A stretch of 64,000 nt of DNA from an uncultured bacterium (lineage in GTDB: Bacteria; UBP4; UBA4092), in contig CAZXWN010000001.1 of NCBI GenBank assembly GCA_964644695.1, forward strand, positions 704,805 through 768,804, given 5' to 3'. The notes beneath the pieces are model-generated. The model was not told where the DNA came from, ran no database searches, and saw only the letters and a list, made by a program, of their open reading frames with translations. Of the stretch, positions 2-47,223 are shown piece by piece. Position 1 is the stretch's first letter. Each line of letters opens with the position of its first letter. Made by a program: the position numbers and the translations under genes.

Positions 2-1696
2 ACTTATGATGCGAAATTACCCAAAGGGGTTGTTGCCACCTATAAGGGTGGAAAAATAACATCAAATGAATTTGAAAAACATCTTAGGACTCTTCCGATG
101 GGTACATGGTTTAATCCCATGGAACGAAATAACAAAACGCCTATGGTGGAAGAATTAAAACAATTCGTACAATATAAATTGATTTATCCTCAAGCAATTA
201 AGGACAAGATTGATCAGATTAATGTTAATAAATGGGCAATTTCAATGACCGAAGATTCCAAAATCTTAAACAAACTATATGATCAGGAAGTAAGGTCAAA
301 AATTGCAGTTACTGAACAAGATGCACAGGAATACTACAATACACATAAACAGGAATTTGAAATTCCAGAATACTATAAAATACGGAATATTTTTGTAGAT
401 TTATCAACAACAAAGCGACCAACAGAGGCAGACAGACAAGAAGGATTATCAAAGATCAATAAAGCTTATTCCAAACTAAAAACAGGGGCAAATTTTATTG
501 ATGTTGCGAAAGAGTTTTCTGAGGACGACATATCTACCCGAGGAGAAGTAAAGGGTGAGTTTCTGACAAAGGACATACCTAATGCTCCAAAAAAACGGCT
601 AGCATTTCCCCTGGAAAGTGCAGCAATCAACATAAAACCAGGTGAATACACCAGTGTTTTAACCACTTCCAAAGGCTACCATATTTTGTACTTGGAAGAG
701 CATCGGTTAGGTTTTATTAACCCCTTTGAAGAAGTAAAATCAGCAGCCTTGGATCGCGTGAAAGTTGAGAAGGCTCCAAAACTTCAGAATGCAGTTGTTA
801 GCCAAGCAACCACCTCAGTAAAACTAACAATCAATTACGACATCCTTAAAGATACAACGGCATCTTCTGACAATAAAATACTTATAGATTCACCATATCG
901 TAAAATAAGTTTCGGTGAGTTCAAATTCCGTGTGGCACGAACAGCAATGGTGTCTCCAAATGAATATAAGGATTTTCTAGACAAGTCTAATTTTTTAATG
1001 TTATTACAATTAGCTGATTATGGACGGATATTAAAAATCAACAAAGAAGCAAGTGTAATAGACGACATTGCGGGTTATAAAACAAAATTCTTGGCTGAGC
1101 AATGGCTCTCAAAAAAGATTAATGAACAAGTAAAAATAACGGACACTGATGTAAAAAACTATTATGATCAAAACACCGGTCGGTTTATGACAGGGAAAGA
1201 ATACTTAGCCCGACAGATTTACATCAAATTTGATAAAAATTCTCAAAACAGATCAGAATTGATGACACAATCAAAAGCAACAATAGATATGGTACTTCAA
1301 AAACTAAAAAATGGAACAGATTTTAGCGACTTAGCAAGGCAATACTCTAGTATCGACAATGCAAAAAATGGCGGACTAGTGGAATGGACGCAACAAGGAC
1401 CTCAGGGAAGAATATTTGACATGACCATAAGTAAAATGACTGTAGGACAAATATCTGATGTCGTTCCAATGCCTGATGGATTCCAAATAATAAAACTTGA
1501 GAACATTAGGGGGCCTTTCCAAATGACCTTCGAAGAAAGTCAGGATAAAGCTCGTAGTTATGTAACCGCTGAAAGGCAGTATGATACTTTAACAAAAGTT
1601 AAAATAAACATTCTGAAGAGTGGATATTTCAAATACGACTCAACCCAGTTGAGTGAATTATTTGACAGAATAATTAACAAATCAGGAACAAAATAG
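2..1696 (+). CDS. PrsA/SurA-like peptidyl-prolyl cis-trans isomerase foldase with two parvulin domains (5' truncated by window)
   Basis: Frame is open from position 2 (TYDAKLPKGVVATYKGGKIT...), so the start lies upstream of the window; two rotamase-like segments (GANFIDVAKEFSED...KGYHIL; GTDFSDLARQYS...DGFQIIKL). Confidence 0.85.
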   Translation, partial: TYDAKLPKGVVATYKGGKITSNEFEKHLRTLPMGTWFNPMERNNKTPMVEELKQFVQYKLIYPQAIKDKIDQINVNKWAISMTEDSKILNKLYDQEVRSKIAVTEQDAQEYYNTHKQEFEIPEYYKIRNIFVDLSTTKRPTEADRQEGLSKINKAYSKLKTGANFIDVAKEFSEDDISTRGEVKGEFLTKDIPNAPKKRLAFPLESAAINIKPGEYTSVLTTSKGYHILYLEEHRLGFINPFEEVKSAALDRVKVEKAPKLQNAVVSQATTSVKLTINYDILKDTTASSDNKILIDSPYRKISFGEFKFRVARTAMVSPNEYKDFLDKSNFLMLLQLADYGRILKINKEASVIDDIAGYKTKFLAEQWLSKKINEQVKITDTDVKNYYDQNTGRFMTGKEYLARQIYIKFDKNSQNRSELMTQSKATIDMVLQKLKNGTDFSDLARQYSSIDNAKNGGLVEWTQQGPQGRIFDMTISKMTVGQISDVVPMPDGFQIIKLENIRGPFQMTFEESQDKARSYVTAERQYDTLTKVKINILKSGYFKYDSTQLSELFDRIINKSGTK

Positions 1697-1717
1697 ATTG
1701 TTTATCAAAATAATAGT

Positions 1718-1753
1718 TAAAATAAGGGGCCGACTATTCGGTCCCTTATTTTA
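1718..1753 (+). terminator. Intrinsic terminator-like hairpin
   Basis: aaataaggggccga-ctat-tcggtcccttatttt inverted repeat immediately after the foldase stop codon. Confidence 0.7.
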
Positions 1754-1818
1754 TTGATATTGTATAACAGAGTTTAATGTGATAATTTAACGATGAGAAT
1801 GAATTATCGGAGCGAAAC

Positions 1819-3519
1819 ATGTCGGACGCTTTTGTGAAAAGAATTGGTGAACTTCTTATTGAATCGCAGTTAATTTCACCTGCAAATTTAGAAGAAGCTC
1901 TTGAATATCAAAAACTAGAGTATAAACCCTTGGGTAAGATATTAGTTGAAATGAATTATATTACTCAAGAGGACTTAGACAGTGTTTTAAAAAAACACCT
2001 AATCACTATTTATGTGAACCCAAGAACTTTTACAGTTCGTAATCCTGAATTATTAGTTAAAATCCCCAAAGATGTTGCATATAAATGGAATTGTATTCCA
2101 TATGATATTATTGGAGATGAACTGTCTGTTGTAATGGAAAATCCATATAATATTGACGCTTTGATTGAATTGCATGATGTATCCCAGATGAGGATTAGAC
2201 CACTCCGGGCAGATTCTATAGCCATTTCCGAGGTTTTGAACCGTATCTATGATAAACAGGAAGAATTTGATGAAACCTTGAACGAGGAAACTCCACAGGA
2301 AATAGCTGCAGACACGGATGTTCTAACACCACTTTCTTTTGATGTAACACCTGAATTACCTTCATTAAATGAAAATGATGCTTTTAAAGATTTATTCAAA
2401 AACCTTGGTTTAGACTCAAGTGATAATGCAATAAACGATATATTAAGCTCAACTATCAGCGAAGATTTCGAACTTCCCCCAATTAATGATAGTGATACTA
2501 ATATTTCCGATGAAAAAGTTGCCAATACAAAAGATGAATTAGAAGACACAATTACTAATAACACTAATATTGACATACCAGAAATCACACTTGAGAACAA
2601 TCCAATTCCTATAGAAGAACATCAAGCCTCATCAGAAGAAAAGACTGAAACTCAACGACCATGGAGTGTAATTCCTCAAGAACAAATTGCTTTTGGTGAG
2701 GATTCGGTAAAAAAACACGAGAGCAAACTACCCATATCATATCTAACATTCGATAACTTTGTTGTAGCACCAAGCAACCAATTAGCTTGGGCTGCTGCAC
2801 AAAACGTTGTTGCACAACCTGGCGTAGGGTTTAATCCATTGTTTATTTACGGTGGCGTCGGGCTTGGGAAAACCCACTTATCAAATGCAATAGGAAATGC
2901 TTTAGCAAAAAAATACCCTAAAGCAAAGATTAGTTATATATCTATTGATACTTTTGTTCGAGAATTAATTGATGCTGTTGAACATGGTGATTTAAAAAAC
3001 TTTCGAGCTCGATACCGTAATTTGGATTTGTTGCTAGTAGATGATGTCCAGTTTTTGAGCGGTCAGGAGAGAACACAGGAAGAATTTTTCTATGTTTTCG
3101 AACAATTATACAGATCTAATGGTCAGATGGTAATAACTTCGGATAGGCTCCCCAGACAAATAGATAAACTAGAAGATCGCCTAAGATCTCGATTCGAAGG
3201 TGGTTTATTAGTTGATGTTCAAATTCCTGACCTGGAGACAAGAATCGCCATATTTAGAAAAAAAATCGCAGCTCGCGGCATGGAAGTTGATGATAATGTT
3301 GCACGATTAGTTGCCACAAGACTAGCGTCCAATATAAGAGAATTAGAGGGTGTTGCAAATCGAATACTAGCACAATGCCAGTTAATGCAAGAACCTATAT
3401 CCGCAGAAATGGTTCAGCAAATTCTTGAAACTGTGGCACCTACTGAAACAATACAAAAACAACCAACCAATCCAGTGGTAACAAAACCAGGGTCTCTACC
3501 TTCAGAAGGTTTTCGCTAG
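1819..3519 (+). CDS. MshEN (T2SSE_N) domain fused to DnaA-family AAA+ domain; DnaA/Hda-like protein lacking domains I and IV
   Basis: N-terminus RIGELLIESQLISPANLEEALEYQ...PLGKILVEMNYIT resembles MshEN of PilB/GspE; C-terminal half has TFDNFVV, NPLFIYGGVGLGKTHL, LLLVDDVQFL, TQEEFF, TSDR, RLRSRFEGGL, NIRELEG; protein ends with no HTH domain IV. Confidence 0.85.
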   Translation: MSDAFVKRIGELLIESQLISPANLEEALEYQKLEYKPLGKILVEMNYITQEDLDSVLKKHLITIYVNPRTFTVRNPELLVKIPKDVAYKWNCIPYDIIGDELSVVMENPYNIDALIELHDVSQMRIRPLRADSIAISEVLNRIYDKQEEFDETLNEETPQEIAADTDVLTPLSFDVTPELPSLNENDAFKDLFKNLGLDSSDNAINDILSSTISEDFELPPINDSDTNISDEKVANTKDELEDTITNNTNIDIPEITLENNPIPIEEHQASSEEKTETQRPWSVIPQEQIAFGEDSVKKHESKLPISYLTFDNFVVAPSNQLAWAAAQNVVAQPGVGFNPLFIYGGVGLGKTHLSNAIGNALAKKYPKAKISYISIDTFVRELIDAVEHGDLKNFRARYRNLDLLLVDDVQFLSGQERTQEEFFYVFEQLYRSNGQMVITSDRLPRQIDKLEDRLRSRFEGGLLVDVQIPDLETRIAIFRKKIAARGMEVDDNVARLVATRLASNIRELEGVANRILAQCQLMQEPISAEMVQQILETVAPTETIQKQPTNPVVTKPGSLPSEGFR

Positions 3520-3603
3520 TTAATCTAGTATAATTGACATGAACTTTTTATGATGATAATTTGATTGTTATTGATAAATTATTATTTACCACTAATCATT
3601 TGA

Positions 3604-4929
3604 ATGAAACAATTATTTTATAAAACATTTTTGTTGTTAATTTTACAATATGTCCTCACTAACAATGTGTTGGCTGCCCGTATTCTCTTACTAAACGGCA
3701 ATGAACTTCTGGGAGAAATCCTGACACAAACTGATACCCACATTGAGTTGCAGATGGGCACATCTCGTATATTACTAAAATTAGAACAAATCAAATCAAT
3801 TGACCAAGAAGAGGGCGAAACATACTTAAAAAATGGAAAAAAAGCCCTTGAAAAAAAAGATTATTATTCTGCAAAGAACTATTTCTTAAAAGCACTCCAT
3901 AACGATCCACATAACACCGCCATTCAACAACTTCTTGATGAGGTTGAATTTTCTGAAATAGAACAAACAAGTATTTTTCCAATTATTAAAAATCTCAAAA
4001 AAGATGATTTAACCTCATATCGTAATGCACTTATTTCACTCGATGATATAAAAAATAAGGAAAGATTCAAGCCATTTATATCTCACCTGAATCAAATAAT
4101 TGCAGACGTTAAAGCCGAATATGCTCAAGCTCTTTACGATAGAACATGGAATGATGAGGCATTTAAACAACTTAGAGAAGCGTATAGAGCATATCCATTT
4201 AGTGAAAAATTTCATAAAGCTGTTGCTCACATTCAAAAACAGATGGGTAATATGACATATGCACAGGAAGAGGAAAATTTAGGTAATAAGATAATCGCTG
4301 ATGCCGATATTGAATATGAAGCTATTGACCAAATAAATCAGGACATTCAAAATGATATTCCCACTGAAGCATATTGGATGGAGCTAGCGCGACATGGAAG
4401 ACAATACAGGACTGAAATAAAAAATGAAACAGAATATGCAAGTATCCTTACCAAAAGGCAGATGAGTTTATTGTTACAAGCATATAATGCCGGTCCAGGG
4501 GCAGTTGTAGCCTATGATGGATATGTTCCTTATCGTGAAACAATAAAATATGTCAAAAGAATCGCAGGTTATATGGAAAGTCCTCCAAATCACAAACTAT
4601 ATGATGATTTAGTAGTAAAATTTTCTAAAAAACACGGACTAGATTCTAATCTGGTACGTTGTTTAATAAAAGCCGAGTCTGGTTATAATACCAAAGCACA
4701 CTCAAACAAAGATGCAAGAGGTTTAATGCAAATAACATATGGTGCATGGAAACATTCAACGAAGAAAATGGGAGTTAATTGGGACTATTATTCAAGTTGG
4801 AATGATCCAGAAAAAAATATAGATGTTGGTTGTGGATATCTTAGTTGGCTACAAAATAATTATCTACCAAAGTTCTTTACGGATATGCGTGTTAATAGCA
4901 CTCAAAAGCTATCAAAAGCAAACAATTAA
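3604..4929 (+). CDS. Secreted TPR-containing lytic transglycosylase (SLT/GH23) with permuted motif order
   Basis: Hydrophobic signal peptide, TPR-like helices (YLKNGKKALEKKDYYSAKNYFLKALHNDPHN), SLT motifs AYNAG, ETIKYV, AES, GLMQI, DPEKNI. Confidence 0.8.
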   Translation: MKQLFYKTFLLLILQYVLTNNVLAARILLLNGNELLGEILTQTDTHIELQMGTSRILLKLEQIKSIDQEEGETYLKNGKKALEKKDYYSAKNYFLKALHNDPHNTAIQQLLDEVEFSEIEQTSIFPIIKNLKKDDLTSYRNALISLDDIKNKERFKPFISHLNQIIADVKAEYAQALYDRTWNDEAFKQLREAYRAYPFSEKFHKAVAHIQKQMGNMTYAQEEENLGNKIIADADIEYEAIDQINQDIQNDIPTEAYWMELARHGRQYRTEIKNETEYASILTKRQMSLLLQAYNAGPGAVVAYDGYVPYRETIKYVKRIAGYMESPPNHKLYDDLVVKFSKKHGLDSNLVRCLIKAESGYNTKAHSNKDARGLMQITYGAWKHSTKKMGVNWDYYSSWNDPEKNIDVGCGYLSWLQNNYLPKFFTDMRVNSTQKLSKANN

Positions 4930-8642: not shown

Positions 8643-9203
8643 CTAAAAAAGACTCAGAACGTAGTCCAAACCACCCATCTCAAATATGAAAAATAGAAGA
8701 ATCGCTAAGACCACAAGCATAGCAATAAATTGAACAACCTTAAAAAAGGAATTGTTTTTTCGTGGTTTTACTCTATAAATATCTTTATCAGGCGTATCAA
8801 ATCGCTTTTCTTTGATAAAAAACGACTTTAACCAGTACATGGGATTAAGCTTTTGTTCTTTCACTTCCTGACGATATTCAAGTAGTCCCAAAGTTTCTTG
8901 TATCAAAAGATAGACACTATTCCACTCGTCTTCAATACGCTCGAGAGAAGCAGTGGAAACATTAAGAGCATCCTCTGGTCGATTAATTTTCCCTAATATA
9001 TCTGTAAAAGACTGAGCAATTTCGATATCAAATTCAATATTCTTTAAGAAGACTTTTGTACCTGTAGTTAAGCGTTGTTTTATTTCATGAAGTTCCTGAA
9101 CGTCAGAACTGTGAGCCATTTGTGGATAAAAATACATCCGAAAACGAACCCAGTCAGAACTGAGTATTTCAAACTGCCGAATTGTCTCTTTTAAAGAACT
9201 CAT
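8643..9203 (-). CDS. Hypothetical protein, helical soluble domain with C-terminal transmembrane helix
   Basis: 186-aa ORF tightly packed between pilC and dprA; hydrophobic C-terminus VVQFIAMLVVLAILLFFIF. Confidence 0.7.
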   Translation of the reverse strand: MSSLKETIRQFEILSSDWVRFRMYFYPQMAHSSDVQELHEIKQRLTTGTKVFLKNIEFDIEIAQSFTDILGKINRPEDALNVSTASLERIEDEWNSVYLLIQETLGLLEYRQEVKEQKLNPMYWLKSFFIKEKRFDTPDKDIYRVKPRKNNSFFKVVQFIAMLVVLAILLFFIFEMGGLDYVLSLF

Positions 9204-9220: not shown

Positions 9221-10267
9221 TTATTTTATTGTATTAACCATATTGAAGATTGGTAAATACATACAAATAACCATACCACCGATGAGAACACCCAAGACAA
9301 CAATTAATAAGGGTTCAATTAGCGATGTAAGTGCTGCTACGGCTGCATCAACTTGTTCATCATAAAACTCTGCTATCTTACTCAACATTTCTTCAAGAGC
9401 ACCGGTTCTCTCACCTACAGCAATCATACGCGTAACCATCGGAGGGAATACCCCTGTTTGCATAAGAGGTGCAGAGATACTTTCACCCTCTTGAATACTG
9501 GTCTTTGTTTTTAAAACGGCTTGTTCAATAATGACATTGCCAGATGTTTTTGCCACAATTTCCAAGGCGGTAATGATATTAACACCAGAACGTACTAATG
9601 TACTTAATGTACGAGTAAATTTGGCGACGGCAACTTTTCTGAAAAGATCACCAAATACAGGCATTTTCAGTTTAAANNNNNNNNNNNNNNNNNNNNNNNN
9701 NNNNNNNNNNNNNNNNNNNNNNNNNNNNNNNNNNNNNNNNNNNNNNNNNNNNNNNNNNNNNNNNNNNNNNNNNNNNCGAGCAAGGTTACCTGATTTTTCC
9801 AGATAAAGTGCAAGCTGGTTCAAAATACCATCCAACATACCGGAAGCTTCACCCGCTTTTACCATATTGACATAAAGGTCCGTAAATACTTTCGGATGTC
9901 GCTCCAACGCAGAAGTTAATGTGCTGCCAGCTTCAACATCTTTTTGTATGTTTAGAACAACTTGACGGAAATTTGCATTTTCCATCTGTTCACCCAGAAC
10001 ATCCAAACTCTCAATCAAAGGAAGACCGGCGCTAACCATCGTAGATAACTGACGCGTAAAAATAATCAAATCATCAAGTTTAATCTTACTTCCCAACTTG
10101 CCAAAAAAACCAGAACGGCCTTTACCTGCCATATCCAAAGATATAGATGTAACTAACAAACCTTGACCACGCAGTTGTCTGAGAACAGTTTCCTGATTTG
10201 GACCTTCCAAGGTTGATTGTATTAGAGCTCCCTGGCTGTTACGAGCTGAATACTTAAAATTGGGCAT
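9221..10267 (-). CDS. pilC: Type IV pilus inner-membrane platform protein PilC (T2SSF family), interrupted by assembly gap
   Basis: FTRQLSTMVSAGLPL, MVKAGEASGML, VGERTGALEEML, LIEPL, MYLPIF; N run at about 9678-9776. Confidence 0.92.
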   Translation of the reverse strand: MPNFKYSARNSQGALIQSTLEGPNQETVLRQLRGQGLLVTSISLDMAGKGRSGFFGKLGSKIKLDDLIIFTRQLSTMVSAGLPLIESLDVLGEQMENANFRQVVLNIQKDVEAGSTLTSALERHPKVFTDLYVNMVKAGEASGMLDGILNQLALYLEKSGNLAXXXXXXXXXXXXXXXXXXXXXXXXXXXXXXXXXXFKLKMPVFGDLFRKVAVAKFTRTLSTLVRSGVNIITALEIVAKTSGNVIIEQAVLKTKTSIQEGESISAPLMQTGVFPPMVTRMIAVGERTGALEEMLSKIAEFYDEQVDAAVAALTSLIEPLLIVVLGVLIGGMVICMYLPIFNMVNTIK

Positions 10268-10425: not shown

Positions 10426-12132
10426 CTAATCAGCAATAGTTGCCCCTAATACTTCTTCCAAAGTGGTTAATCCCTCAATGACTTTTAAGATCCCGGATTC
10501 CCGTAAAGTACGCATTCCATTTTCCCTGGCAAGTTTTTTTATGTATATAAGGCTTTGTCCATCAATAAGAGCTTCTCTTATTATGTCAGTAACTACCAGT
10601 ATTTCATAAAGGGAAACACGACCTCTATAACCTGTTTTGCTACAGAAATCACATCCCATTCCACGAGCAAAAGTTATATTATCTTTTGAGACATTTTCTG
10701 GCAATATAAAGGACTGAAGAACGTCTTTACTGGGAACATAGGTTTCCTTACAACGAGGACAAATTCTTCGTACTAAACGTTGTGCGACAACCATATTCAA
10801 GGACGCTGTTACTAAAAATGGTTCAACACCCATATCGGTCAAACGCGTTACAGTACTTGGAGCATCATTTGTATGGATTGTGCTAAAAACCAGGTGACCG
10901 GTCATAGCCGCTTTAATGGCAATTTCAGCTGTTTCTAAATCTCGGATTTCACCGACCAGGATAATGTCAGGATCTTGACGCAGGAATGAACGCAGGCCAG
11001 CTGCAAAAGTCAGACCGATTTCGGATTTTGCCTGAACCTGATTCACACCAGACAATTGGTATTCTACGGGGTCTTCAATTGTCATAATATTGACATCGGG
11101 ACTGTTTACTGTACTTAAGGCTGAATAGAGGGTCGTTGTTTTACCACTTCCTGTGGGTCCAGAGACTAATACCATGCCATATGGTCGTGATATCTGTTCA
11201 TTAAAAACCCTTAAGGTATCCCCTTCAAATCCCAGTTTTGTTAAATCCAAAACAAGGCTGCTGCGATCCAAAATACGCATAACAACTTTTTCGCCAAAAA
11301 CTGTGGGAATAATAGAAACACGAAGGTCAACCACTCGATCCTCGATTTTGACCTTAAATCGTCCATCTTGGGGTAAACGGCGCTCAGCAATATCCATTTC
11401 AGACAGGATTTTGATACGAGAGACAATAGGTGCATATAATCTTCTGGGAGGAGGACTCACTTCGACTAAAGATCCATCAACACGAAAACGAACCCGAATC
11501 GTATATTCAAAAGCCTCAATATGAATATCACTGGCCCTGTCACGAATCGCTTGTTGAAGAAGAGCGTTGACCCACTTAATAACCGGAGCCTCATCACTCA
11601 TGGCTTTCATGTCAGCTACATCAACATCTTTATCCGTATCAGACACTACTTCCATTTCGTTTTCCTGAATATCTTTGAGCACCTGCTCCATGGCTCCACC
11701 ACGATAATACTGGTCTATCGCACGGAGAATATCTGATTCATAACTTATGAGGGGTATGATTTCAAATTTTGTTAATAATTTAAGTTCATCAAGAATAAAG
11801 ATGTTTGCAGGGTCAGCTAAAGCGACAGTCAGGGTATTACCCATCTTATCAACCGGAATAATTTTATACTTCCGAACGATGTCTTCCGGGATAGTTTTGA
11901 TGATTGATACATCAATTTCATAATGAGATAAAGTAATGTAGGGTATTCCAAGCTGCTTACTGAGGGCCTGAGCAATCGCTTCTTCAGAGACAAAACCTAA
12001 TGTCACCAGGGTATCACCTAACCGCTTACCCTGGGATCGTTGGGCCTCCAGCGCTTTATCCAGTTGCTCTTTAGTAATTAAACCTTCAGCAACCAGCATA
12101 TCGCCTAAACGATAATTTTCAGCAATAGACAT
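10426..12132 (-). CDS. pilB: Type IV pilus assembly ATPase PilB with canonical MshEN domain
   Basis: RLGDMLVAEGLITKEQLDKALEAQ...RLGDTLVTLG, ASDIHIE, ERRLPQDGR, GPTGSGKTTT, LRQDPD, CxxC pairs. Confidence 0.95.
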   Translation of the reverse strand: MSIAENYRLGDMLVAEGLITKEQLDKALEAQRSQGKRLGDTLVTLGFVSEEAIAQALSKQLGIPYITLSHYEIDVSIIKTIPEDIVRKYKIIPVDKMGNTLTVALADPANIFILDELKLLTKFEIIPLISYESDILRAIDQYYRGGAMEQVLKDIQENEMEVVSDTDKDVDVADMKAMSDEAPVIKWVNALLQQAIRDRASDIHIEAFEYTIRVRFRVDGSLVEVSPPPRRLYAPIVSRIKILSEMDIAERRLPQDGRFKVKIEDRVVDLRVSIIPTVFGEKVVMRILDRSSLVLDLTKLGFEGDTLRVFNEQISRPYGMVLVSGPTGSGKTTTLYSALSTVNSPDVNIMTIEDPVEYQLSGVNQVQAKSEIGLTFAAGLRSFLRQDPDIILVGEIRDLETAEIAIKAAMTGHLVFSTIHTNDAPSTVTRLTDMGVEPFLVTASLNMVVAQRLVRRICPRCKETYVPSKDVLQSFILPENVSKDNITFARGMGCDFCSKTGYRGRVSLYEILVVTDIIREALIDGQSLIYIKKLARENGMRTLRESGILKVIEGLTTLEEVLGATIAD

Positions 12133-35300: not shown

Positions 35301-36005
35301 ATGTCTGACAAACCAATCATTCAATGCCAGGATATTTACAAATATTATGGCCAGGGAGATATTCAGGTTACAGCCTTGGAGGATATTGACATGTCCATCC
35401 ATGAAGGTGATTTTGTAGCACTTATGGGACCCTCTGGTTCAGGCAAGTCTACTTTACTACATATCCTTGCTGGGATTGACCGCCCCACAGAAGGTTCCTG
35501 CATTATTGATGGAATAAACATTTCTGAACTTACTGAAGATAACTTAGCCCGCTGGAGAAACCAGTACATAGGTTTCATTTTCCAAACATTCAATTTACTG
35601 CCCGTATTGACAGCCTTTGAAAATGTTGAGCTTCCCCTACTTTTAACCAGACTATCTTTAAAAGAAAGAAAAGAACATGTTATGAATGCACTCGATTTGG
35701 TAAGCCTTTCGGATAGAGCTCATCATTACCCCCGGCAATTATCCGGGGGACAGGAACAACGAGTAGCTATCGCCAGGGCTATTGTAACGGATCCAAGACT
35801 TATTCTGGCTGATGAGCCAACAGGTGATTTAGACGCTCATTCAGCTGAAGATGTGTTGCAAGTACTTACCTTACTTAATCGGGAAATGAAGAAAACAATC
35901 GTCATGGTAACCCATGATCCCAAGGCAGCACGATATTCCTCAATAACTCGGCATTTAGATAAGGGCATCTTACTTCCATTGGAATCCAATGCCCATACAT
36001 CCTGA
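35301..36005 (+). CDS. ABC ATP-binding protein (LolD/MacB type)
   Basis: [37 protein letters not shown]. Confidence 0.93.
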
Positions 36006-36006
36006 A

Positions 36007-37320
36007 TCACTTTTCTGGTTGATATAAATCTTCAGCCTGCCCCATAGACTTTGCTAAATTTGCCTTAGCCAGATTATATTCAAATTGTGCACGAATTAGA
36101 TTGTTCTGGGCACGAGCTAAAGTATCTTGCGCATCAACGACTTCAATATTTGTAGTCACGCCCGCAGTATAGCGACTTCGGGTCAGTTTTAATGTTATCT
36201 CTGCTGCCTTCACCCCTGATTGGGCACTTTCCACTTGCTGAGCGGCAGCCCCAAGAGCCAGAAGAGCATCCCGAACTTCATACTCTATCTGAGATTCCAC
36301 TTCTTTAATTTGAAGATCTTGCTGTGCAATTTGTGTTGTTACCTGGGCATAACGAGCTTCTACCCTTCCCCCATTAATGATAGGCCAGGTTACCCCTAAA
36401 CTTATTGAGTAGACAGAATCAGTATGACTCGGGTCTTCTCCAGAGAATCCAGCACCCGCCTGCAAACCCACCACAGGCCAAGATGCTGTTTTTTCCTTCT
36501 CAGCTAGTTTTAATAATGCTTTTTTTGTTTTGACAGCACTAATATAATCAGGACGTTTATCAAGACAGGCTGGATATATATTTGAGAAAACAACCACCGG
36601 AGTTTCATCATATTTCATGGCATCTGAAAGAACAATGGGCTGATCCTGTTCTATTCCAATATAACGGGATAAAGCCAATTTACTTTGTTCCCACAACACG
36701 CTAGTTTCAGATAATGTCTGCAGTTCGTTTTGATATTGGAGGTCAGCCCTTGATGTTTCCAGTCTACTCCCCATACCCGCCTTTTCAAATTTATCAGATT
36801 GTTCTTTCAGAGCTCCTGCCACATCAACCCGGGACACAGCAGCATCCAGCTGGGCTTTTGCCCGAAGCGTTTGTAGATATAAAACAATAGTCTGGAGAGT
36901 AACAGCCTCACGGCTTGCAGAATATCCGTCTTGGCTAACTTCTTCCTGTAGCTTAGAAGCCTCTACAGCTCGCTGTAAACTCCGGTTGAAAATAACCTGG
37001 GAAATGCCAAGTTTAGTATTGAAAGTATTATATTCAACAGTGCCACCCAGTGACGAACCGTTTGCAGACATACTAACTTCTTGTCGAGATTGCGCAAGAG
37101 TTCCTTCAATCTGAGGATACAATCCCGACTTAACTTCACGAGTCATCCAACCAGATTCCTCTACTTTCAACTTCTGTATTTGCAGAGGCCTACTCTGCTT
37201 CAAGGCAAGTCCGACAGCCTCTTTTAAAGTTAACGAATATTCTTTTATATCGTTTGCCCAACAAGAACTCCAAATAAATAATACGGTAATAAAAGCACTG
37301 CTAATGTATCTCAATTTCAT
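36007..37320 (-). CDS. TolC family outer membrane efflux protein
   Basis: Signal peptide, LTLKEAVGLAL, YTAGVTTNIEVVDAQ repeat pattern. Confidence 0.88.
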   Translation of the reverse strand: MKLRYISSAFITVLFIWSSCWANDIKEYSLTLKEAVGLALKQSRPLQIQKLKVEESGWMTREVKSGLYPQIEGTLAQSRQEVSMSANGSSLGGTVEYNTFNTKLGISQVIFNRSLQRAVEASKLQEEVSQDGYSASREAVTLQTIVLYLQTLRAKAQLDAAVSRVDVAGALKEQSDKFEKAGMGSRLETSRADLQYQNELQTLSETSVLWEQSKLALSRYIGIEQDQPIVLSDAMKYDETPVVVFSNIYPACLDKRPDYISAVKTKKALLKLAEKEKTASWPVVGLQAGAGFSGEDPSHTDSVYSISLGVTWPIINGGRVEARYAQVTTQIAQQDLQIKEVESQIEYEVRDALLALGAAAQQVESAQSGVKAAEITLKLTRSRYTAGVTTNIEVVDAQDTLARAQNNLIRAQFEYNLAKANLAKSMGQAEDLYQPEK

Positions 37321-37353
37321 AAAGAGTCTCCTTATATCCAGTATCAATTCGTT

Positions 37354-38490
37354 CTAACTCAATTTCTTCTTGAATCGTACCATCGCCGCCAGGAATAATA
37401 ACAATCCCATTCCACTTAAGATAAGAACATCTTTAGAAAGATCTTCCAATGAGGCACTCCGTAATATAATACCTCTCAAGATATTCATGTAATAGGTGGC
37501 TGGTAATAGTGAACTAATACTATAAAATATCCAAGGCATTGTAAATCGGGGGAATATAAATCCCGATAGAAAAACAGATGGCAGCAAGGTCACCATGGAC
37601 ATTTGAACAGCTTGAACCTGTGAGGTAGCTTTGGTAGAAATCAATAACCCAATACTAAGATTCACAAAAATGAAGAGTGTGGTCAATAACATCAACAGCA
37701 AGAAGCTCCCCGCAATGGGCACTTTAAAGACAACCACCAATAGCCAAAATAAAAACATTGCTTCGGCCCAGGCTAACAGGATGTATGGAATCATCTTTCC
37801 TAAAAGCAATCCAAACTTACTCAAAGGTGTAACCATCAACTGTTCTAAGGTTCCCCGTTCTCGTTCTCTCACAATGGCAAATGCAGTAAGAAAAGTAGTA
37901 ACCAACTGGAGAGCCACCCCAATAACTCCCGGTACAAAAAAGTTTTCCGATCGTAAATCAGGATTGTACAAAACTTTAGGCCTTGATTCTATGGGTAAAT
38001 TTTTCATCGAAGTACCTGACTGTCGTGTCAGCTGCTCTAAGGAACTCATAAATGCCACATTGTTACTTACATTAAGAGCTTGTGAAGCAAGAGTGTTATT
38101 CGACCCATCAATTAATGTCAGGAAGGTGGCTGATTTACCTGTTGCCAGATTATTTGAATAATCAGGAGGGATTTTGATTCCCACATAGACTTCCCCTCGG
38201 GTAAGAGCACTCATCATCTCTTTTTCACTTTTTACTTCCCGGATAATATCAATATATTGCGTATTTTCTATCTTGGATACTAATTCCCGACTGGCTTGCC
38301 TACCATCCTGATTCAGAAGTACGGCAGGAGTATGTTTCACATCTGTTTTGATGGCAAAACCAAAAGCCAACACCTGAATAAGTGGCGGCAGGAAAGCAAA
38401 GAATATCGTTAAAGGATCCCGTAACATCGTCAGCAATTCTTTATAAAGAATCGCATATAATCCTCGAAAAGGAGAGAATCGCTTATACAT
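37354..38490 (-). CDS. ABC-2 permease (YbhR/YbhS-like)
   Basis: YNPDL, AIVRERERGTLEQLMVTP, LSGFIFP. Confidence 0.9.
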   Translation of the reverse strand: MYKRFSPFRGLYAILYKELLTMLRDPLTIFFAFLPPLIQVLAFGFAIKTDVKHTPAVLLNQDGRQASRELVSKIENTQYIDIIREVKSEKEMMSALTRGEVYVGIKIPPDYSNNLATGKSATFLTLIDGSNNTLASQALNVSNNVAFMSSLEQLTRQSGTSMKNLPIESRPKVLYNPDLRSENFFVPGVIGVALQLVTTFLTAFAIVRERERGTLEQLMVTPLSKFGLLLGKMIPYILLAWAEAMFLFWLLVVVFKVPIAGSFLLLMLLTTLFIFVNLSIGLLISTKATSQVQAVQMSMVTLLPSVFLSGFIFPRFTMPWIFYSISSLLPATYYMNILRGIILRSASLEDLSKDVLILSGMGLLLFLAAMVRFKKKLS

Positions 38491-39439
38491 GTGACTTATT
38501 CTCCTTACTTTTCAACTGAGTTAATGTTACAAAGACATCCTCTAATGAAGGCTGAATCGGGCGTGCATCCACATACTTTAAGCCCTCATTTTTTAAAAGC
38601 GAAACTAGATCTTGAGGATTCAATGATTCTTCTATCAATAGGTGGATTGCTTGACCAAATATGGTTGCTTCTGCAACTCCAGGATAATGCCTCAATAACC
38701 GCAATCCCGTCGTAGCAGGTTCACAATCAACCTCAATTCGATGATATCCCTTAGGATTTACTTCTGGCAATTGCTTCAGTTCATCAGGATCACCTAATAC
38801 CATCAATTTCGATAGATAGATATAACCGATATGACTACACCGTTCAGCTTCATCCATATAGTGTGTAGTGACAAAGAAAGTAATACCTTGCCCGGATAAT
38901 TGAAACAATAAATCCCATAAGTCTCTTCGAGCAACGGGGTCAATACCTGCTGTAGGCTCATCCAAAAAGACTAACTCCGGACTGTGTATCATGGCACAAG
39001 CTAAGGCTAATCGCTGTTTCCAACCTCCAGAAAGCTGCCCTGCGCGCCTGTCCATATAAGGTTCTAATCCTGTCAGATGATATAGTTCTTCCTGGCGGTT
39101 TCGCAAAGCAGTACCGGTAACCCCATAAAGATGCCCATAAAAATAGATATTCTCTTTGACCGTCATTTCCTCATATAGACTAAACTTCTGGGACATATAT
39201 CCAATCCGAGATTTTATCTCCTCAGGGTGTTTAGAAATATCCAAACCTAAAACAGTTGCATGTCCGGCCGAGGGAGATAATATTCCACACAGCATCCGAA
39301 TCACCGTCGATTTACCCGATCCATTGGGTCCAAGAAAACCAAAGATACTCCCTTTGGTTACATCAAAGGACACATCATCCACAGCGGTAAATTTACCAAA
39401 TCGCCGGGTTAGTTTGTTCACAACCACTGGTTTATCCAT
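38483..39439 (-). CDS. ABC ATP-binding protein (YbhF-like, single domain)
   Basis: GPNGSGKST, YMSQKFSLY, LSGGWKQRL, LDEPTAGID, TTHYMDEAE. Confidence 0.92.
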   Translation of the reverse strand: MDKPVVVNKLTRRFGKFTAVDDVSFDVTKGSIFGFLGPNGSGKSTVIRMLCGILSPSAGHATVLGLDISKHPEEIKSRIGYMSQKFSLYEEMTVKENIYFYGHLYGVTGTALRNRQEELYHLTGLEPYMDRRAGQLSGGWKQRLALACAMIHSPELVFLDEPTAGIDPVARRDLWDLLFQLSGQGITFFVTTHYMDEAERCSHIGYIYLSKLMVLGDPDELKQLPEVNPKGYHRIEVDCEPATTGLRLLRHYPGVAEATIFGQAIHLLIEESLNPQDLVSLLKNEGLKYVDARPIQPSLEDVFVTLTQLKSKENKSHV

Positions 39440-39441
39440 GT

Positions 39442-40482
39442 TTATCTCCGTGTAATTCCTTCCAGAGTGACATCCGCTCCCATACCGGCTCTGAGTTTAT
39501 CACCCTGATTATTTATCTGGACTTTGACGCCAAACACGGTATTAACTCTTTCTTCAACAGTTTGCACATTACGTGGCGTAAACTCTGCCTGTCGATTTAT
39601 CTGGATCACCTGGCCCTTAAATACTTCACCCGGAAAGGAGTCCACTTTTATATCAGCAATTTGATTATTTTTAATCTGTCCCAAATAGTTCTCTGGAACA
39701 TAAATCTTTATCCAGAGGGAATTGGGTTTTATTAATGTCAGAGCGGATTGATTTGCATTCAGCAAATCTCCAGGTTGTAAATCACATACCTCCACAACAC
39801 CATCCTCAGGGGCCACGATTGCCAATTCATTCAAACGGCTTTGCACTTCATTTAGGGATTGCTGCGCCACCACCATCTGCGATTTAGCATAGTCAACATC
39901 AGCACGAGCCTGTTGAATTTCTTCTTTCCGTGGACCCTCTTTTATCAGAGACAAGGTTTCCATTGCAGATTTTTCTTGAGACTCTAAAATGCTGACTTGG
40001 TTCAAAACACTGTCATATTGCTGCCGGGATACTGCGCCATCATTGTATAATTCAGTGTACCTTTTTGCATCTTTTCGGGAGAGCGCGAGTTTTTCTTGAA
40101 TGGATTTCATGTCTGCTCGAGCACGGTCAATCTCTTGTGGCCGGCTTCCTGCCAGAAGCTGCGACAATCGAGATTGTCGCTGACGAGCAAGGTCTTCTCC
40201 TGCTTTAAGGCTTCCTCGGGCTTGAGCCTCACGGGATACTAAGTCCTCTGCTTCCAATCGTACTAATATCTGCCCTTTTTTAACACTGTCACCTTCTTTA
40301 ACCAAGACTTCCTTTACTCTGCCACCATTACGTGAACCTACCCGAATATCGTCAGCTTCTATGGTGCCATTAAAAAACAATGATTTATCATCTGTGGCTC
40401 TCTTCGTCGAACATCCACTCATAACAATCAGGATTCCCAATAAAACGAATATGATATTTTTGGATCGCATGATATAGTTCAT
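39442..40482 (-). CDS. HlyD family adaptor (YbhG-like), possible lipoprotein
   Basis: MSGC lipobox-like site, GGRVKEVLVKEGD, AEFTPRNVQT. Confidence 0.9.
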   Translation of the reverse strand: MNYIMRSKNIIFVLLGILIVMSGCSTKRATDDKSLFFNGTIEADDIRVGSRNGGRVKEVLVKEGDSVKKGQILVRLEAEDLVSREAQARGSLKAGEDLARQRQSRLSQLLAGSRPQEIDRARADMKSIQEKLALSRKDAKRYTELYNDGAVSRQQYDSVLNQVSILESQEKSAMETLSLIKEGPRKEEIQQARADVDYAKSQMVVAQQSLNEVQSRLNELAIVAPEDGVVEVCDLQPGDLLNANQSALTLIKPNSLWIKIYVPENYLGQIKNNQIADIKVDSFPGEVFKGQVIQINRQAEFTPRNVQTVEERVNTVFGVKVQINNQGDKLRAGMGADVTLEGITRR

Positions 40483-41081
40483 CCCTTCTTTATTTGTTTT
40501 AAGCCACTAACGGCAAAAAGAGCTGTTTCGTGAGCGAGCTTTCGATACATATCGTCAGCTTTAATTTCTTTTGGCTTCAAATACATCAAGACCATATGAA
40601 CGGTCACGGCATGAGTACAAAGCGATATGATGTGGTAGGCCGAAAAGGTTGAATCACTCACATGAAAAATACCTTCCTTAATTCCATCTTCAATAATTGC
40701 GTTTACATTACGAAAATTAACTTTAATAAAAGGTTCCATTGCTTTTAACGCCCGAGGCTCTTCATTGGACATTTCACGGAGTATCAACCTTATTTTGTTG
40801 CGTTGTTTCAATGCCATATACATAAAATCTTCGACATATACCAAAAGACGTTCATCGGGTGGACCCGACATCTCAGATATTTCAAAGATTCGTTTGGCGA
40901 CATCCTTAACAGCATCCTGTATCACTGCCGTGTATAAATTCTCTTTTCCACCAAAATGATATGTAATGGCTCCCAGATTAACTTTTGCTTTATCCGTAAT
41001 CATCCGGATAGAGACTCCTTCATATCCATAACGGGAAAATAAATCTCGAGAGATGTTTATGATGAGTTGCCTGGTATCCAC
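40479..41081 (-). CDS. TetR family regulator (CecR/YbiH-like)
   Basis: LFSRYGYEGVSIRMI...VNLGAITYHFGGKENLY; first gene of a ybhGFSR-like operon. Confidence 0.9.
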   Translation of the reverse strand: MDTRQLIINISRDLFSRYGYEGVSIRMITDKAKVNLGAITYHFGGKENLYTAVIQDAVKDVAKRIFEISEMSGPPDERLLVYVEDFMYMALKQRNKIRLILREMSNEEPRALKAMEPFIKVNFRNVNAIIEDGIKEGIFHVSDSTFSAYHIISLCTHAVTVHMVLMYLKPKEIKADDMYRKLAHETALFAVSGLKQIKKG

Positions 41082-41111
41082 TTTCTTCGGACTCCTTATT
41101 TATTTATTCAT

Positions 41112-41153
41112 TCATACATTTGTATGATATTTCAAATCAGAAGTTCCTGTCAA
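41112..41153 (-). promoter_or_regulatory. Promoter with overlapping putative TetR operator
   Basis: Minus strand TTGACA-18 bp-TATCAT; palindrome TCATACA-tt-TGTATGA at 41112-41127 overlaps the -10. Confidence 0.6.
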
Positions 41154-41177
41154 GCGAAGAAGTATTATTCAATAAAT

Positions 41178-41702
41178 CTAGTAGTAGAAAACGCCAATCA
41201 AACCACTGATAAGAATGGGCCAAAAAGGAGAGACACGGGTGCGGGTAAGAACTAAAAAAACGGCCGCAAAACAGAACAGACTATAGTAATCAACCACTGA
41301 AGCGGCTGTCAGTGTATATGTTGCAGAAGCCATCAAACCAATCACGGCGGCAGTAGCATAAGTCAAAGCCCCCTGAAATAATCTGTTAGACTCCAGCCAG
41401 GAATAGAAACGGGAGGAAAGATATACCAGGATGATTGAAGGAGTAAATATTCCAAAGGTTGCTGCAGTTGCACCACCCCATGACAAAATACGATACCCAA
41501 TAAAAGTAGCCATAATTGCCGCAGGACCTGGAGTAATCATCCCCACAGCCACCGCATCCTGTACTTCACGAAGGGACAACCAATGGTGAATATCCACAAA
41601 TTCATGTTGGATTATTGGGATCATTCCAATCCCACCACCAAAGGTAAATAATCCAATCACGAAAAATAAGTAAAACAGACCAAATAAAGTTGGGGGCATC
41701 AT
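41178..41702 (-). CDS. Short-chain chromate transporter (CHR family)
   Basis: IGLFTFGGG, ITPGP, ATFIGY. Confidence 0.88.
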   Translation of the reverse strand: MMPPTLFGLFYLFFVIGLFTFGGGIGMIPIIQHEFVDIHHWLSLREVQDAVAVGMITPGPAAIMATFIGYRILSWGGATAATFGIFTPSIILVYLSSRFYSWLESNRLFQGALTYATAAVIGLMASATYTLTAASVVDYYSLFCFAAVFLVLTRTRVSPFWPILISGLIGVFYY

Positions 41703-42262
41703 TATTTCAGACTTCCTTTAGGAGGATTCATAAAGGTTAAACCAACACCAACGATTCCCATTCCTAAAATGACCCATACAGGATGTAAATGGCAATATTC
41801 TAAAAGAACAAAAGAAATAATTCCCGCACCAATCAAAAGCCAATGCCGCAATGATTTCCATCCCATCCGCCATGTTAATGAGGCAAGAGCCGCAGCAACG
41901 GCAGGTCCTAAACCTTTAAAAAAGTTCTTTAGCCACAGTTGGTCTTTGGCCAGAGAATAAAATGTAGCAAAGGCAATAACGACAAAAAAGGAAGGAAGGA
42001 CCAATGCGAGCAGTGTAATCAATAATCCCCAGATACCGCATAATCTATACGCAATAAATCCAGAAACATTACATATTATGACGCCAGGAATCGTCTGCCC
42101 AATTGTCATTGCTCGGAAAAATTCATCATGATCAATCCATTTTAAGCGGTGAACCAATTCATGTTCAATCAGTGTTAACATGGCCAACCCACCCCCAATG
42201 GATTGGAGCCCAATTTTCAAAAATACAAAAAACAATTCTCGTTTTGAGACTTGGGAAGACAA
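41702..42262 (-). CDS. Short-chain chromate transporter (CHR family)
   Basis: KIGLQSIGGG, GQTIPG, VLPSF; paired with the neighbouring CHR gene. Confidence 0.88.
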   Translation of the reverse strand: MSSQVSKRELFFVFLKIGLQSIGGGLAMLTLIEHELVHRLKWIDHDEFFRAMTIGQTIPGVIICNVSGFIAYRLCGIWGLLITLLALVLPSFFVVIAFATFYSLAKDQLWLKNFFKGLGPAVAAALASLTWRMGWKSLRHWLLIGAGIISFVLLEYCHLHPVWVILGMGIVGVGLTFMNPPKGSLK

Positions 42263-42268
42263 TCTGGG

Positions 42269-43237
42269 TTACTCCCCTTTCTTTAAGGCTTCGTCAACCT
42301 CTTTCTCAAGAGCGCTCTTTTCTGTTTCAGGGATGAGTAAGGAAAGGATAATGGAGAGTCCCAAAGTTAAAACAACTACGGCTAAGGCCCATCCAATCGG
42401 AAAAACAAACCAATGATGTATCAACATCTTGAATCCAATAAATACAAGGATGGCAGCTAAACCGTAGTGCAGGAATCGGAATAGCGGCATCAGCCCAGCC
42501 AAGGCAAAGAATAATGCTCTTAACCCTAATACGGCAAAGATATTAGATGAAAAAGCGATAAATCCATCTCGGGTAATAGATAATATTGCCGGAATTGAAT
42601 CAACCGCAAAGACCACATCCGTTGATTCAATAGCAATCAAGACAATCACTAGAGGCGTTGCTAATATTTTCCCATCAACTCGTGTAAAAAACTTATCACC
42701 GACATAATCTTTAGTTATTGGGAGATGTTTACGAATAAACAAAAGAATGGGATTCCGCTCAGGATGAATTTCCTCATCCCCCTTCTTTAGCATCTTAATA
42801 CCTGTATATAAAAGGAAGGCCCCAAAGATATAAATTACCCACTCAAAGCGGGTAATCAAGGCTAATCCAGCGCCAATAAAGAAAGCCCTGAAAACCACGG
42901 CACCTAGAATACCCCAGTATAAAACACCATGACGATTTTGAGGTTTTACATTGAAAAAAGAGAAAATCAGTAAGAAAACGAAGAGGTTATCAACACTTAA
43001 AGCTTTTTCGATGATATACCCTGTAAGAAATTGATTTCCAGCCTCATGGCCCTTCACATAATAAACCAAGACATTAAATAAAAGAGCCGGAACTATCCAA
43101 TATACGCAGAGGAGTAAAGATTCTCTAATCTTAATCTCATGAGCTTTTCGATTCAAAACCAGTAAATCAACAATCAATAAAATAATCGTTACAAGGATGA
43201 AGATCGTCCATAACCAAAAATCGGGATGTTGTGTCAT
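42269..43237 (-). CDS. TerC/Alx family membrane protein
   Basis: EKALSVDNLFVF, IESTDVVFAVDSIPAI, SNIFAVLGLRALFF; likely ATG 43237. Confidence 0.92.
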   Translation of the reverse strand: MTQHPDFWLWTIFILVTIILLIVDLLVLNRKAHEIKIRESLLLCVYWIVPALLFNVLVYYVKGHEAGNQFLTGYIIEKALSVDNLFVFLLIFSFFNVKPQNRHGVLYWGILGAVVFRAFFIGAGLALITRFEWVIYIFGAFLLYTGIKMLKKGDEEIHPERNPILLFIRKHLPITKDYVGDKFFTRVDGKILATPLVIVLIAIESTDVVFAVDSIPAILSITRDGFIAFSSNIFAVLGLRALFFALAGLMPLFRFLHYGLAAILVFIGFKMLIHHWFVFPIGWALAVVVLTLGLSIILSLLIPETEKSALEKEVDEALKKGE

Positions 43238-43341
43238 GAGATTCCTTTTCCTGTCAATATCAAGAGTCAGATTGAATCTATATTTTACCATGTTGACAGA
43301 TTCAGACACTTAATCTAAGCAACTCAATATTTGCCGCAAAA

Positions 43342-43386
43342 CGAAGAAACCACGGACTTGCTCCGAGCAGCTCCGTAGTTTCTTCG
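43342..43386. repeat. Palindromic REP-like element, copy 2
   Basis: cgaagaaaccacggacttgctc-c-gagcagctccgtagtttcttcg. Confidence 0.8.
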
Positions 43387-43520
43387 ACAAATCTCAGGTA
43401 TTTATCAATTATTCCGATTATGTAAACATATTTAATAATCAAAGAGTACTATAGTTGCATTAAGATAAAATTAATTGAGATAAGTAGTGAGAACAGGATA
43501 ATCACTCCCGTCATAAGAGT

Positions 43521-43549
43521 TTGACACTCCATAGAATCTCACTTATTAT
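43521..43549 (+). promoter_or_regulatory. Sigma70-type promoter
   Basis: TTGACA-17 bp-TATTAT upstream of 43589. Confidence 0.6.
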
Positions 43550-43588
43550 TTGAAATCATACTAAAAGAACGGATTCAGGAATAAACTT

Positions 43589-44443: not shown

Positions 44444-44448
44444 GCATT

Positions 44449-45804: not shown

Positions 45805-45927
45805 TTCAGACCGATTTTGCATATTCAAATCACCCTGCCTGACATGTTATATTTATATGAATAACTATATGCCGGAGGGCAGGTCTGACAGGTTATTCAC
45901 CTTCCCTATCAGCACAGAGAGGTTTCT

Positions 45928-47154: not shown

Positions 47155-47223
47155 TTTGAACTTTCTGCTCAAATTTGCCAAACTAAGGTTATCTGAGGAT
47201 TTACAGCGGTCAGGAGAAAATGC

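Follow-up and report, generated by a model that had tools for sequence, protein, structure and literature searches.

What might be the task of a protein that joins the ATPase core of the replication initiator DnaA to a receptor domain of pilus motors? The question is raised by one gene in a 64,000-nucleotide stretch of DNA, here called the window (positions 704,805 to 768,804 of contig CAZXWN010000001.1), from an uncultured bacterium of the GTDB lineage Bacteria; UBP4; UBA4092. The gene encodes an MshEN domain, an acidic linker and a DnaA-type AAA+ (ATPases associated with diverse cellular activities) module in a single frame. Judging by the genomes compared, this fusion is a core gene of the window's phylum and of Candidatus Hydrogenedentota. 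Our tentative answer, to which we give somewhat less than an even chance, is that the protein is a soluble two-module ATPase switch of an undescribed family, which would couple cyclic di-GMP (c-di-GMP) and the state of the pilus to DnaA by co-assembly.

An earlier interpretation of the DNA alone (the sequence-only reading) had proposed the order MshEN, linker, DnaA domain III, and this order is borne out, with the three parts at amino acids (aa) 7-151, 152-301 and 302-546. In the 566-aa protein, Pfam places MshEN (PF05157) at aa 74-148 with 39.7 bits (cut-off 23.1) and Bac_DnaA (PF00308) at aa 309-466 with 203.6 bits. The same scan matched neither Bac_DnaA_C nor DnaA_N and no domain IV is hidden downstream, in agreement with the proposal that domain IV is absent and domain I replaced. 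The NCBIfam model 'c-di-GMP_motif' (NF053729) matches aa 8-59 with 62.5 bits (cut-off 38), and the NCBIfam model of NfrB is matched over aa 7-118. The protein does not reach the cut-off of the DnaA equivalog TIGR00362 (327.9 bits against 343.9, covering only positions 51-343 of the 437 in the model), nor that of the Hda model TIGR03420 (91.6 bits against 194.8).

Structural comparison leads to the same assignment. An AlphaFold2 model built on 40 family sequences predicts both domains with good local confidence (predicted local distance difference test, pLDDT, by ten-residue blocks 74-93 at aa 11-150 and 84-97 at aa 301-540). With Foldseek, the C-terminal domain matches Bacillus subtilis DnaA (8btg and 8bv3, 48-49% identity; for 8bv3 a root-mean-square deviation of 1.7 A and a template modelling (TM) score of 0.94). 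The N-terminal domain matches MshE with bound c-di-GMP (5htl_B, TM 0.57 on the target, 139 columns) and Thermus PilF (6ejf_G). The AAA+ module scores 245 bits against B. subtilis DnaA (8btg) and 46 bits against Hda chains, and over aa 309-537 it shares 45% identity with the DnaA of this genome. The Walker A, Walker B, sensor I, RLRSRF and NIRELEG motifs quoted in the sequence-only reading are all in the translation. Sensor I (TSDR) lies at aa 440-443, and its Asp is kept in 39/40 family sequences; the arginine finger, R458, is presumably the counterpart of R285 of Escherichia coli DnaA. Given an intact arginine finger and two intact sensors, the module is expected to bind ATP, with hydrolysis confined to head-to-tail oligomers. 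The linker has an isoelectric point of 4.05, with 37 Asp and Glu against 8 Lys and Arg, and the protein stops 20 aa beyond the lid. At its C-terminus the pattern PS[EQ]G[FL]R is kept in 8/9 sequences of the closest clade. In the Hydrogenedentota clade, 7/9 sequences finish in -AA, an ending that resembles ClpX-type C-terminal degrons.

From the domain content, the fusion protein is not an initiator but a second, extra gene beside a complete dnaA: it is without domain IV, by which oriC is found, and without domain I, by which the helicase is recruited. With domains I, II and IV all missing, the protein alone cannot recognise oriC, as had been predicted. The genome (3.07 Mb, 98.7% complete) holds three Bac_DnaA matches: the fusion gene, a weak 31-bit match in a 254-aa frame and, on contig C2, a canonical dnaA. 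The canonical dnaA (L107:5750-7654) carries DnaA_N, Bac_DnaA and Bac_DnaA_C, the last being the only match to that family in the 3.07 Mb. A separate canonical dnaA-dnaN locus had been expected; the complete dnaA is there, and dnaN does not adjoin it, lying on contig C21 (G000:C21:8981-9331). A type II secretion pseudopilin (T2SSG) gene and then thiC come after the canonical dnaA on C2.

An assembly chimera, or a full-length dnaA cut short by a frameshift, would give the same appearance; we regard this as having a negligible chance. Both halves share one frame in the homologues of 5/5 genomes of the window's phylum, and a 568-aa protein (P0002), 95% identical to the window protein, is found in a separate assembly. 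Contigs from four public runs of four studies cover positions 1700-3700 with no joint, loose end or indel within the open reading frame. These runs are sludge and wastewater metagenomes (one is labelled RNA-Seq and is probably DNA), and the window itself may derive from the one contig that spans all of 1700-3700. The surroundings of the fusion gene encode no domain IV. The artefact explanation, which the sequence-only reading had itself named as a risk, is thus refuted by the in-frame homologues, the independent contigs and the lack of a nearby domain IV, and the domain counts in sequence databases, given next, speak against it as well.

The architecture recurs widely. The window's phylum comprises five species genomes, and 5/5 have the fusion plus a second DnaA-type gene; in the other four genomes the second frames are 470-498 aa long and group with canonical DnaA in the tree. 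When the 120 best listed relatives of the window protein were examined for domains, 15 contained both PF05157 and PF00308; the same pair was present in 118 of the 120 listed relatives of P0180. A profile search covered 1.84 billion cluster representatives, the best 150 of which were sorted with custom domain hidden Markov models. Among these 150, 43 hold MshEN and a DnaA-type AAA+ module, and 36/43 end at most 5 residues from the lid; 31 have two tandem DnaA-type AAA+ modules and no MshEN, and 76 have a single AAA+ module and are mostly ordinary DnaA. Pfam confirmed the fusion architecture in 9/9 fusion candidates scanned, and eight mixed proteins divided into four fusions (P0122, P0132, P0144 and P0159) and four tandem or single-AAA+ proteins. 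Linker length ranges from 25 to 777 aa across the family.

The larger clade of fusions belongs to Candidatus Hydrogenedentota. This phylum is the commonest in both of the nearest ESM-Atlas clusters, which have 72 and 56 members, and those listed relatives of P0180 that carry a name at NCBI are entered for Candidatus Hydrogenedentes as 'DnaA/Hda family protein' or 'ATP-binding protein'. In 50 of the 61 Hydrogenedentota genomes sampled there is a match far stronger than the genome's own DnaA (E <=1e-67; frames of 542-1080 aa), and in 2 more both halves lie in one frame, giving at least 52/61. The nine genomes without a clear fusion were searched again with the family profile. In G111 the AAA+ end, cut by a contig edge, lies before a PilB-type frame; of the other eight, G062, G079, G115 and G120 are fragmented (250-820 contigs), and G077, G088 and G107, of two genera, may truly be without the fusion. 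Among 56 genomes sampled beyond the window's phylum with the window protein as query (E <=1e-20), both halves occurred in frame only in G040, itself a member of Hydrogenedentota. The homologues of the same architecture that the sequence-only reading had called for are therefore present in both phyla.

In the tree of AAA+ modules, a single clade (support 97) unites those of the window's phylum. Within it the branching order repeats that of canonical DnaA from these five genomes, in keeping with vertical descent, and branch lengths in the closest family are about those of canonical DnaA. A quick AAA+ tree did not join this clade with that of Hydrogenedentota. A tree holding all fusion AAA+ modules together was better by 16 log-likelihood units (approximately unbiased test, p-AU 0.7), and one origin of the fusion AAA+ modules is, on these sequences, neither rejected nor shown. 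In a tree of MshEN domains only, a single clade of all fusions was narrowly rejected (p-AU 0.047), because the fusion clade includes a stand-alone MshEN of G001; we draw nothing on origin from this rejection. The stand-alone protein, of 190 aa, is encoded directly upstream of the fusion gene in G001 (L019:8513-9085), nests in the fusion clade of the window's phylum with support 100 and resembles a tandem duplicate of just the sensor module.

Other arrangements of the same modules were seen. Two giant proteins, P0122 (1876 aa) and P0123 (1990 aa), have an N-terminal MshEN and two DnaA-type AAA+ modules some 1400 residues apart. DnaA-type AAA+ modules also lie inside frames of 2492 aa (G003, L012, C1:254599-255309) and 2164 aa (G034:C3:230662-231366); the visible part of the former is repeat-like, and its AAA+ groups with short-linker MshEN fusions in the tree. 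The tandem AAA+ proteins (P0010-P0099, P0124-P0153) are about 640 aa long, mostly of Gemmatimonadota by their NCBI names, and without MshEN or domain IV; their first and second modules fall in separate clades.

In the mechanism that we propose, MshEN would act as a c-di-GMP receptor and docking domain, as on the pilus motor PilB, and would be linked by a long, acidic, disordered tether to the DnaA-derived AAA+ module. The occupancy of MshEN by c-di-GMP, docking at the pilus platform, or both, would set the freedom of the AAA+ module to oligomerise. Once free, the module would co-assemble with ATP-bound DnaA through the shared AAA+ interface, lengthening or capping the DnaA oligomer, and pilus and c-di-GMP state would thereby be relayed to replication initiation. 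Elements of such a scheme have been described. MshEN receptors steer an oligomeric ATPase to which they are joined by a flexible linker (PMC5013675). Hda, a DnaA-related AAA+ protein without a DNA-binding domain, is reported to act on DnaA, and PMC7196804 reports for Caulobacter a link of pili, c-di-GMP and cell-cycle initiation. Co-assembly with DnaA uses both halves of the protein and would explain why the AAA+ module stays DnaA-like; it is the reading that we hold, with a confidence that stops short of one half. That this copy binds c-di-GMP, that DnaA is its target and which way the effect runs are inferences of ours. The more far-reaching form, in which a c-di-GMP-gated DnaA paralogue, a core gene in two phyla, co-polymerises with the initiator and lets a second messenger and the pilus motor act on the origin filament, appears rather unlikely to us. 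What weighs against coupling to DnaA lies in the receptor domain, in the gene context and in the search for a link with DnaA itself.

The receptor domain of the window protein keeps the frame of a c-di-GMP site, with motif I at aa 8-31, a spacer at aa 32-36 and motif II at aa 37-60 (24 + 5 + 24). The Gly at position 3 is kept in both motifs (G10, G39), as are the triad residues I9, L24, L28, L38, L53 and L57. In the family alignment (n=40), the position-3 Gly is present in 37/40 sequences for motif I and 39/40 for motif II, and Leu57 in 40/40. The turn Gly at position 10 is absent from both motifs of the window copy (Q17, N46), and the Gln at position 24 is kept in motif I (Q31) and is His (H60) in motif II. 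In its relaxed form, the motif given in PMC5013675 permits [GAS] at position 10, and His is not among the residues listed for position 24. The helix turns of Vibrio cholerae MshE depend on these turn glycines, and Leu or Ile substitutions there considerably cut c-di-GMP binding (PMC5013675, Fig. 3d). The MshEN of the window copy is also the most diverged of its family: it has the longest end branch in the fusion clade of its own phylum in the MshEN tree (0.86 against a median of 0.30), and nine relatives score 51-64 bits with the Pfam MshEN model, well above its own score.

These departures raise the prospect that the MshEN domain of this copy no longer binds c-di-GMP and serves for protein docking only, an explanation orthogonal to the choice of target, which we find unlikely yet serious. 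The substitutions at Q17, N46 and H60, the long branch and the reduced binding on Gly replacement in V. cholerae MshE all speak for it. On the other side, the curated cut-off of NF053729 is exceeded by 24 bits, the base-contacting G10 and G39 and all six triad positions are kept, and Asn is a common turn residue. Among the 16 clade sequences, N46 together with H60 is common only to the window protein and P0002, and motif I is without the turn Gly in 15/16, which suggests that the turn Gly may not be required in this clade. The genome also contains 13 GGDEF matches, which together with the NF053729 score support the c-di-GMP link put forward in the sequence-only reading; for the window copy, binding judged from these residues is likely but not safe.

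The gene context points to the pilus. Control by the pilus machine had been suggested, and the Hydrogenedentota loci agree with it: in 22/22 loci, fetched from 13 family codes, the fusion gene stands directly before pilB (MshEN and T2SSE) on the same strand, at the head of a pilB-pilT(-pilS) operon. In 19 of the 22 there follows a gene for another ATPase, which is PilT-like, and in both loci annotated further a PilS-like sensor kinase gene comes after it. In G003, of a sister genus of the window's bacterium, genes for a hybrid histidine kinase, a REC-GGDEF protein, a PAS-GAF-HD-GYP protein (1365 aa), the fusion and a PilT-like ATPase run in one direction (L018:6977-17942); by its domain content this cluster unites c-di-GMP turnover, a sensor and a pilus ATPase. 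The window's own pilB is convergent with the fusion gene, and of the six full-length PilB/GspE-type matches in the genome (eight in all) it is the best match to the Hydrogenedentota operon pilB (552 bits; the next paralogue reaches 517). The genome holds 13 T2SSE matches in its 3.07 Mb, from which simple arithmetic gives a T2SSE gene at <=9 kb for roughly 7% of genes. At G000:C14:16722-21379, three consecutive genes encode T2SSE ATPases of 635, 381 and 586 aa, two of which carry MshEN, and form a further pilus or secretion motor cluster.

Such a context favours a regulator of the pilus motor that does not act on DnaA at all and instead sets how the type IV pilus motor extends, retracts or is placed. 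Its MshEN would dock where that of PilB docks, or share the same c-di-GMP pool, and its AAA+ module would be an ATP-driven oligomerising scaffold. At 27 loci (5 of the window's own phylum, 22 of Hydrogenedentota) no dnaA, dnaN or other replication gene stands beside the fusion, so that operon context, as read from these genes, points to the pilus motor only and is better evidence for such a regulator than for a DnaA coupler. With the family in a pil operon and replication genes absent from its surroundings, the replication-regulator reading is possible, not shown, and a pilus-motor regulator, to which we give about one chance in three, is a near-equal rival. Nevertheless, we know of no mechanism by which a DnaA-type AAA+ module acts on a pilus. 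The fusion gene lies outside a pil operon in 4/5 genomes of the window's phylum, a point against a link with pilus state in either reading, and is kept in all five. In addition, the AAA+ half is far better conserved than MshEN (highest identity of the window copy to a relative 85% and 50%, respectively). Because the module is still 45-49% identical to true DnaA, cross-assembly with DnaA would be hard to avoid.

The proposal that DnaA is the target was examined with a predicted complex of the AAA+ module and domain III of the genome's DnaA with ATP and Mg. The interface score (ipSAE) was 0.33 against 0.00 for the best control, a value graded as 'weak support'. This mark was reached by 58/80 solved complexes and by 2/110 mismatches; at <=0.60 it includes only 7 of the 80 solved complexes and both mismatches. 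Agreement between the runs is >=95% of contacts, with a partner pLDDT of >=86, and since DnaA filaments have already been solved, the score may be memory or mere likeness. The claim that DnaA is the target therefore has a predicted contact in its favour and the replication-free surroundings of 27 loci against it. DnaA boxes, whose consensus we take to be TTWTNCACA, number 7 in the window against 8.8 expected, with none upstream of the fusion gene.

Inactivation of DnaA in the manner of Hda had also been suggested. The protein would bind the DNA-loaded sliding clamp, and its arginine finger would trigger ATP hydrolysis by DnaA (regulatory inactivation of DnaA). In favour of this are the lone DnaA-related AAA+ module with an intact arginine finger and the genome's Bac_DnaA matches, which comprise DnaA, the fusion and the weak 254-aa frame, with no Hda found. 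The suggestion does not hold up well: apart from the missed TIGR03420 cut-off, expressions for Hda-type clamp-binding motifs (QL[SD]LF-type and QLxLxL-type) had no match in the window protein, which counts against coupling to DnaA by this route, and in the 16 closest relatives matched only inside folded domains. The location of dnaN on another contig adds to this, and we consider an Hda-like inactivator very improbable.

The residues that contact single-stranded DNA (ssDNA) bear on a different function, the handling of incoming ssDNA at the pilus base in natural transformation, with MshEN as a tether and the AAA+ module, of a type whose relatives form ATP-filaments on ssDNA, receiving or protecting the DNA. 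The sequence-only reading had held the positions of E. coli V211 and R245 to be kept in TFVRE and QERTQEEFF. The second assignment stands (R418); the first does not, since I384, and not V380 of TFVRE, aligns opposite Ile190 of B. subtilis DnaA, presumably the counterpart of E. coli V211. The contact region is thus partly kept, with a basic residue at 416 or 418 in most members of the 40-sequence alignment, the family is tied to a pilus operon, and dprA lies 4 kb away both in the window and in G004. Yet dprA is transcribed convergently to the fusion gene, and dprA-topA is a common gene pair by itself. The position equivalent to R245 is Glu in 14/40 family sequences, and comEA, comEC and comF were not seen in the loci examined. 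We know of no precedent for such a handler, and it seems improbable, if a little less so than an Hda-like role.

Features of the fusion gene and of the nearby pilus genes in the window (coordinates in nucleotides of the window)
Feature	Position (strand)	Residues	Remarks
Terminator-like hairpin	1718..1753 (+)		16 pairs and T-run; between upstream PPIase gene and fusion gene
Whole MshEN-linker-DnaA(III) gene	1819..3519 (+)	566 aa	Includes stop codon; ATG start; open reading frame and domain matches
MshEN domain	1819..2271 (+)	aa 1-151	Four-helix bundle and alpha/beta subdomain; Pfam, NCBIfam, model, Foldseek
c-di-GMP motif region	1840..1998 (+)	aa 8-60	53 residues; NF053729; departs from consensus at Q17, P37, N46, H60
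Acidic disordered linker	2272..2721 (+)	aa 152-301	pLDDT <50
DnaA-type AAA+ domain III with lid	2722..3456 (+)	aa 302-546	PF00308, Foldseek, model
Walker A, GGVGLGKT	2851..2874 (+)	aa 345-352	K351 and T352 invariant in 40/40 family sequences
Walker B, LLLVDD	3028..3045 (+)	aa 404-409	D408 and D409 in 40/40
Box VII, RLRSRF	3178..3195 (+)	aa 454-459	Arginine finger R458 in 40/40
Sensor II, NIRELEG	3331..3351 (+)	aa 505-511	R507 in 40/40
Disordered basic tail	3457..3516 (+)	aa 547-566	Ends PGSLPSEGFR; pLDDT <50
pilC (T2SSF)	9221..10267 (-)		Adjoins pilB
pilB (MshEN and T2SSE ATPase)	10426..12132 (-)		6.9 kb from fusion gene; convergent

In the window, the fusion gene is flanked by genes for a SurA-like peptidyl-prolyl isomerase (PPIase) and a soluble lytic (SLT) transglycosylase. 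Beyond these, convergent to it, lie topA, dprA, a gene without a known family, pilC and pilB, in the same order as in G004. The gene between dprA and pilC encodes a 186-aa protein without a Pfam family (window 8643-9203, minus strand), and one of 187 aa has the same place in G004. The neighbours in G001 and G002 are a GDSL lipase gene and a cyclophilin-like gene. The strong terminator-like hairpin parts the fusion gene from the PPIase gene, and the fusion gene therefore probably has its own promoter; a sigma-70 scan of positions 1500-3800 found no match above chance. A GGAG lies 8 nucleotides 5' of the ATG. The cumulative GC skew of the window has its minimum near 44 kb (-0.84; range about 36000-52000) and rises after it, which may reflect gene orientation only.

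The architecture is common in sequence databases under generic names and is unstudied in the literature. The sequence-only reading knew of no described system of this kind, and a full-text literature search likewise found no paper on an MshEN-DnaA architecture, though the supplementary architecture lists of PMC5013675 may tabulate one. The main text of that paper names as MshEN partners only REC, HD-GYP, CheA, CheX, cyclase, Ser/Thr kinase, ATPase and glycosyltransferase. DnaA is not mentioned in the MshEN passages of PMC10118264, PMC12448109 and PMC12943098. Searches on DnaA-related proteins returned Hda and HdaB only, and none was found on DnaA-like proteins with pilB and pilT. New in the window are a second phylum with a universal fusion and its place mostly outside a pil operon, in one genus among c-di-GMP turnover genes.

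To our knowledge, the coupling of replication to lifestyle (attached or free, piliated or not) is understood in molecular detail for very few lineages, where it runs via long phosphorelays. The fusion unites a c-di-GMP receptor and the initiator's oligomerising ATPase core in one conserved protein, whose gene in the largest clade is presumably transcribed together with those of the pilus motor. Should the fusion act on DnaA, a second messenger would for the first time be seen to feed directly into the DnaA filament, and DnaA-related regulators would gain a second class after Hda; if gated co-polymerisation is true, the fusion would be a one-protein link of surface or pilus sensing to chromosome replication. 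If it acts on the pilus, a DnaA fold would have been recruited for a task beyond replication. Either outcome would be new and can be tested with purified proteins. In addition, the fusion family is a marker gene for Hydrogenedentota as well as for the small phylum of the window.

Among known systems, DnaA itself (B. subtilis 8btg/8bv3) shares with the fusion the AAA+ core with the initiator-type helical insert and lid and all catalytic motifs. The fusion differs in being without domain I (helicase and partner binding), domain II and domain IV (DnaA-box binding), and it falls under the TIGR00362 cut-off. Hda, or HdaA, the sole characterised class of domain-IV-less DnaA relatives known to us, is similarly a DnaA-related AAA+ protein with an arginine finger and without a DNA-binding domain. 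Unlike Hda, the fusion is far nearer to DnaA, is without a clamp motif and has a 300-residue N-terminal extension including MshEN.

With MshE, PilB and PilF (5htl, 6ejf, 8pfa) the fusion has in common the N-terminal fold and the tandem 24-residue motif; its ATPase, however, is a DnaA-type AAA+ module and not T2SSE/PilB, and the turn glycines are replaced in the window copy. In NfrB, a c-di-GMP-activated glycosyltransferase of E. coli, MshEN also controls an enzyme other than a secretion ATPase, according to PMC10118264; NfrB has another effector, is a membrane protein and carries its MshEN at the C-terminus. The nearest likeness is the Hydrogenedentota MshEN-DnaA(III) family, whose modules come in the same order and whose proteins likewise stop just past the lid. 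Its members differ from the window's clade in having the canonical Gly at most turns, linkers of up to 777 aa and -AA tails, and in always standing before pilB, whereas the window's clade forms its own branch (support 97), with Pro at position 1 of motif II, and lies mostly outside the pil operon.

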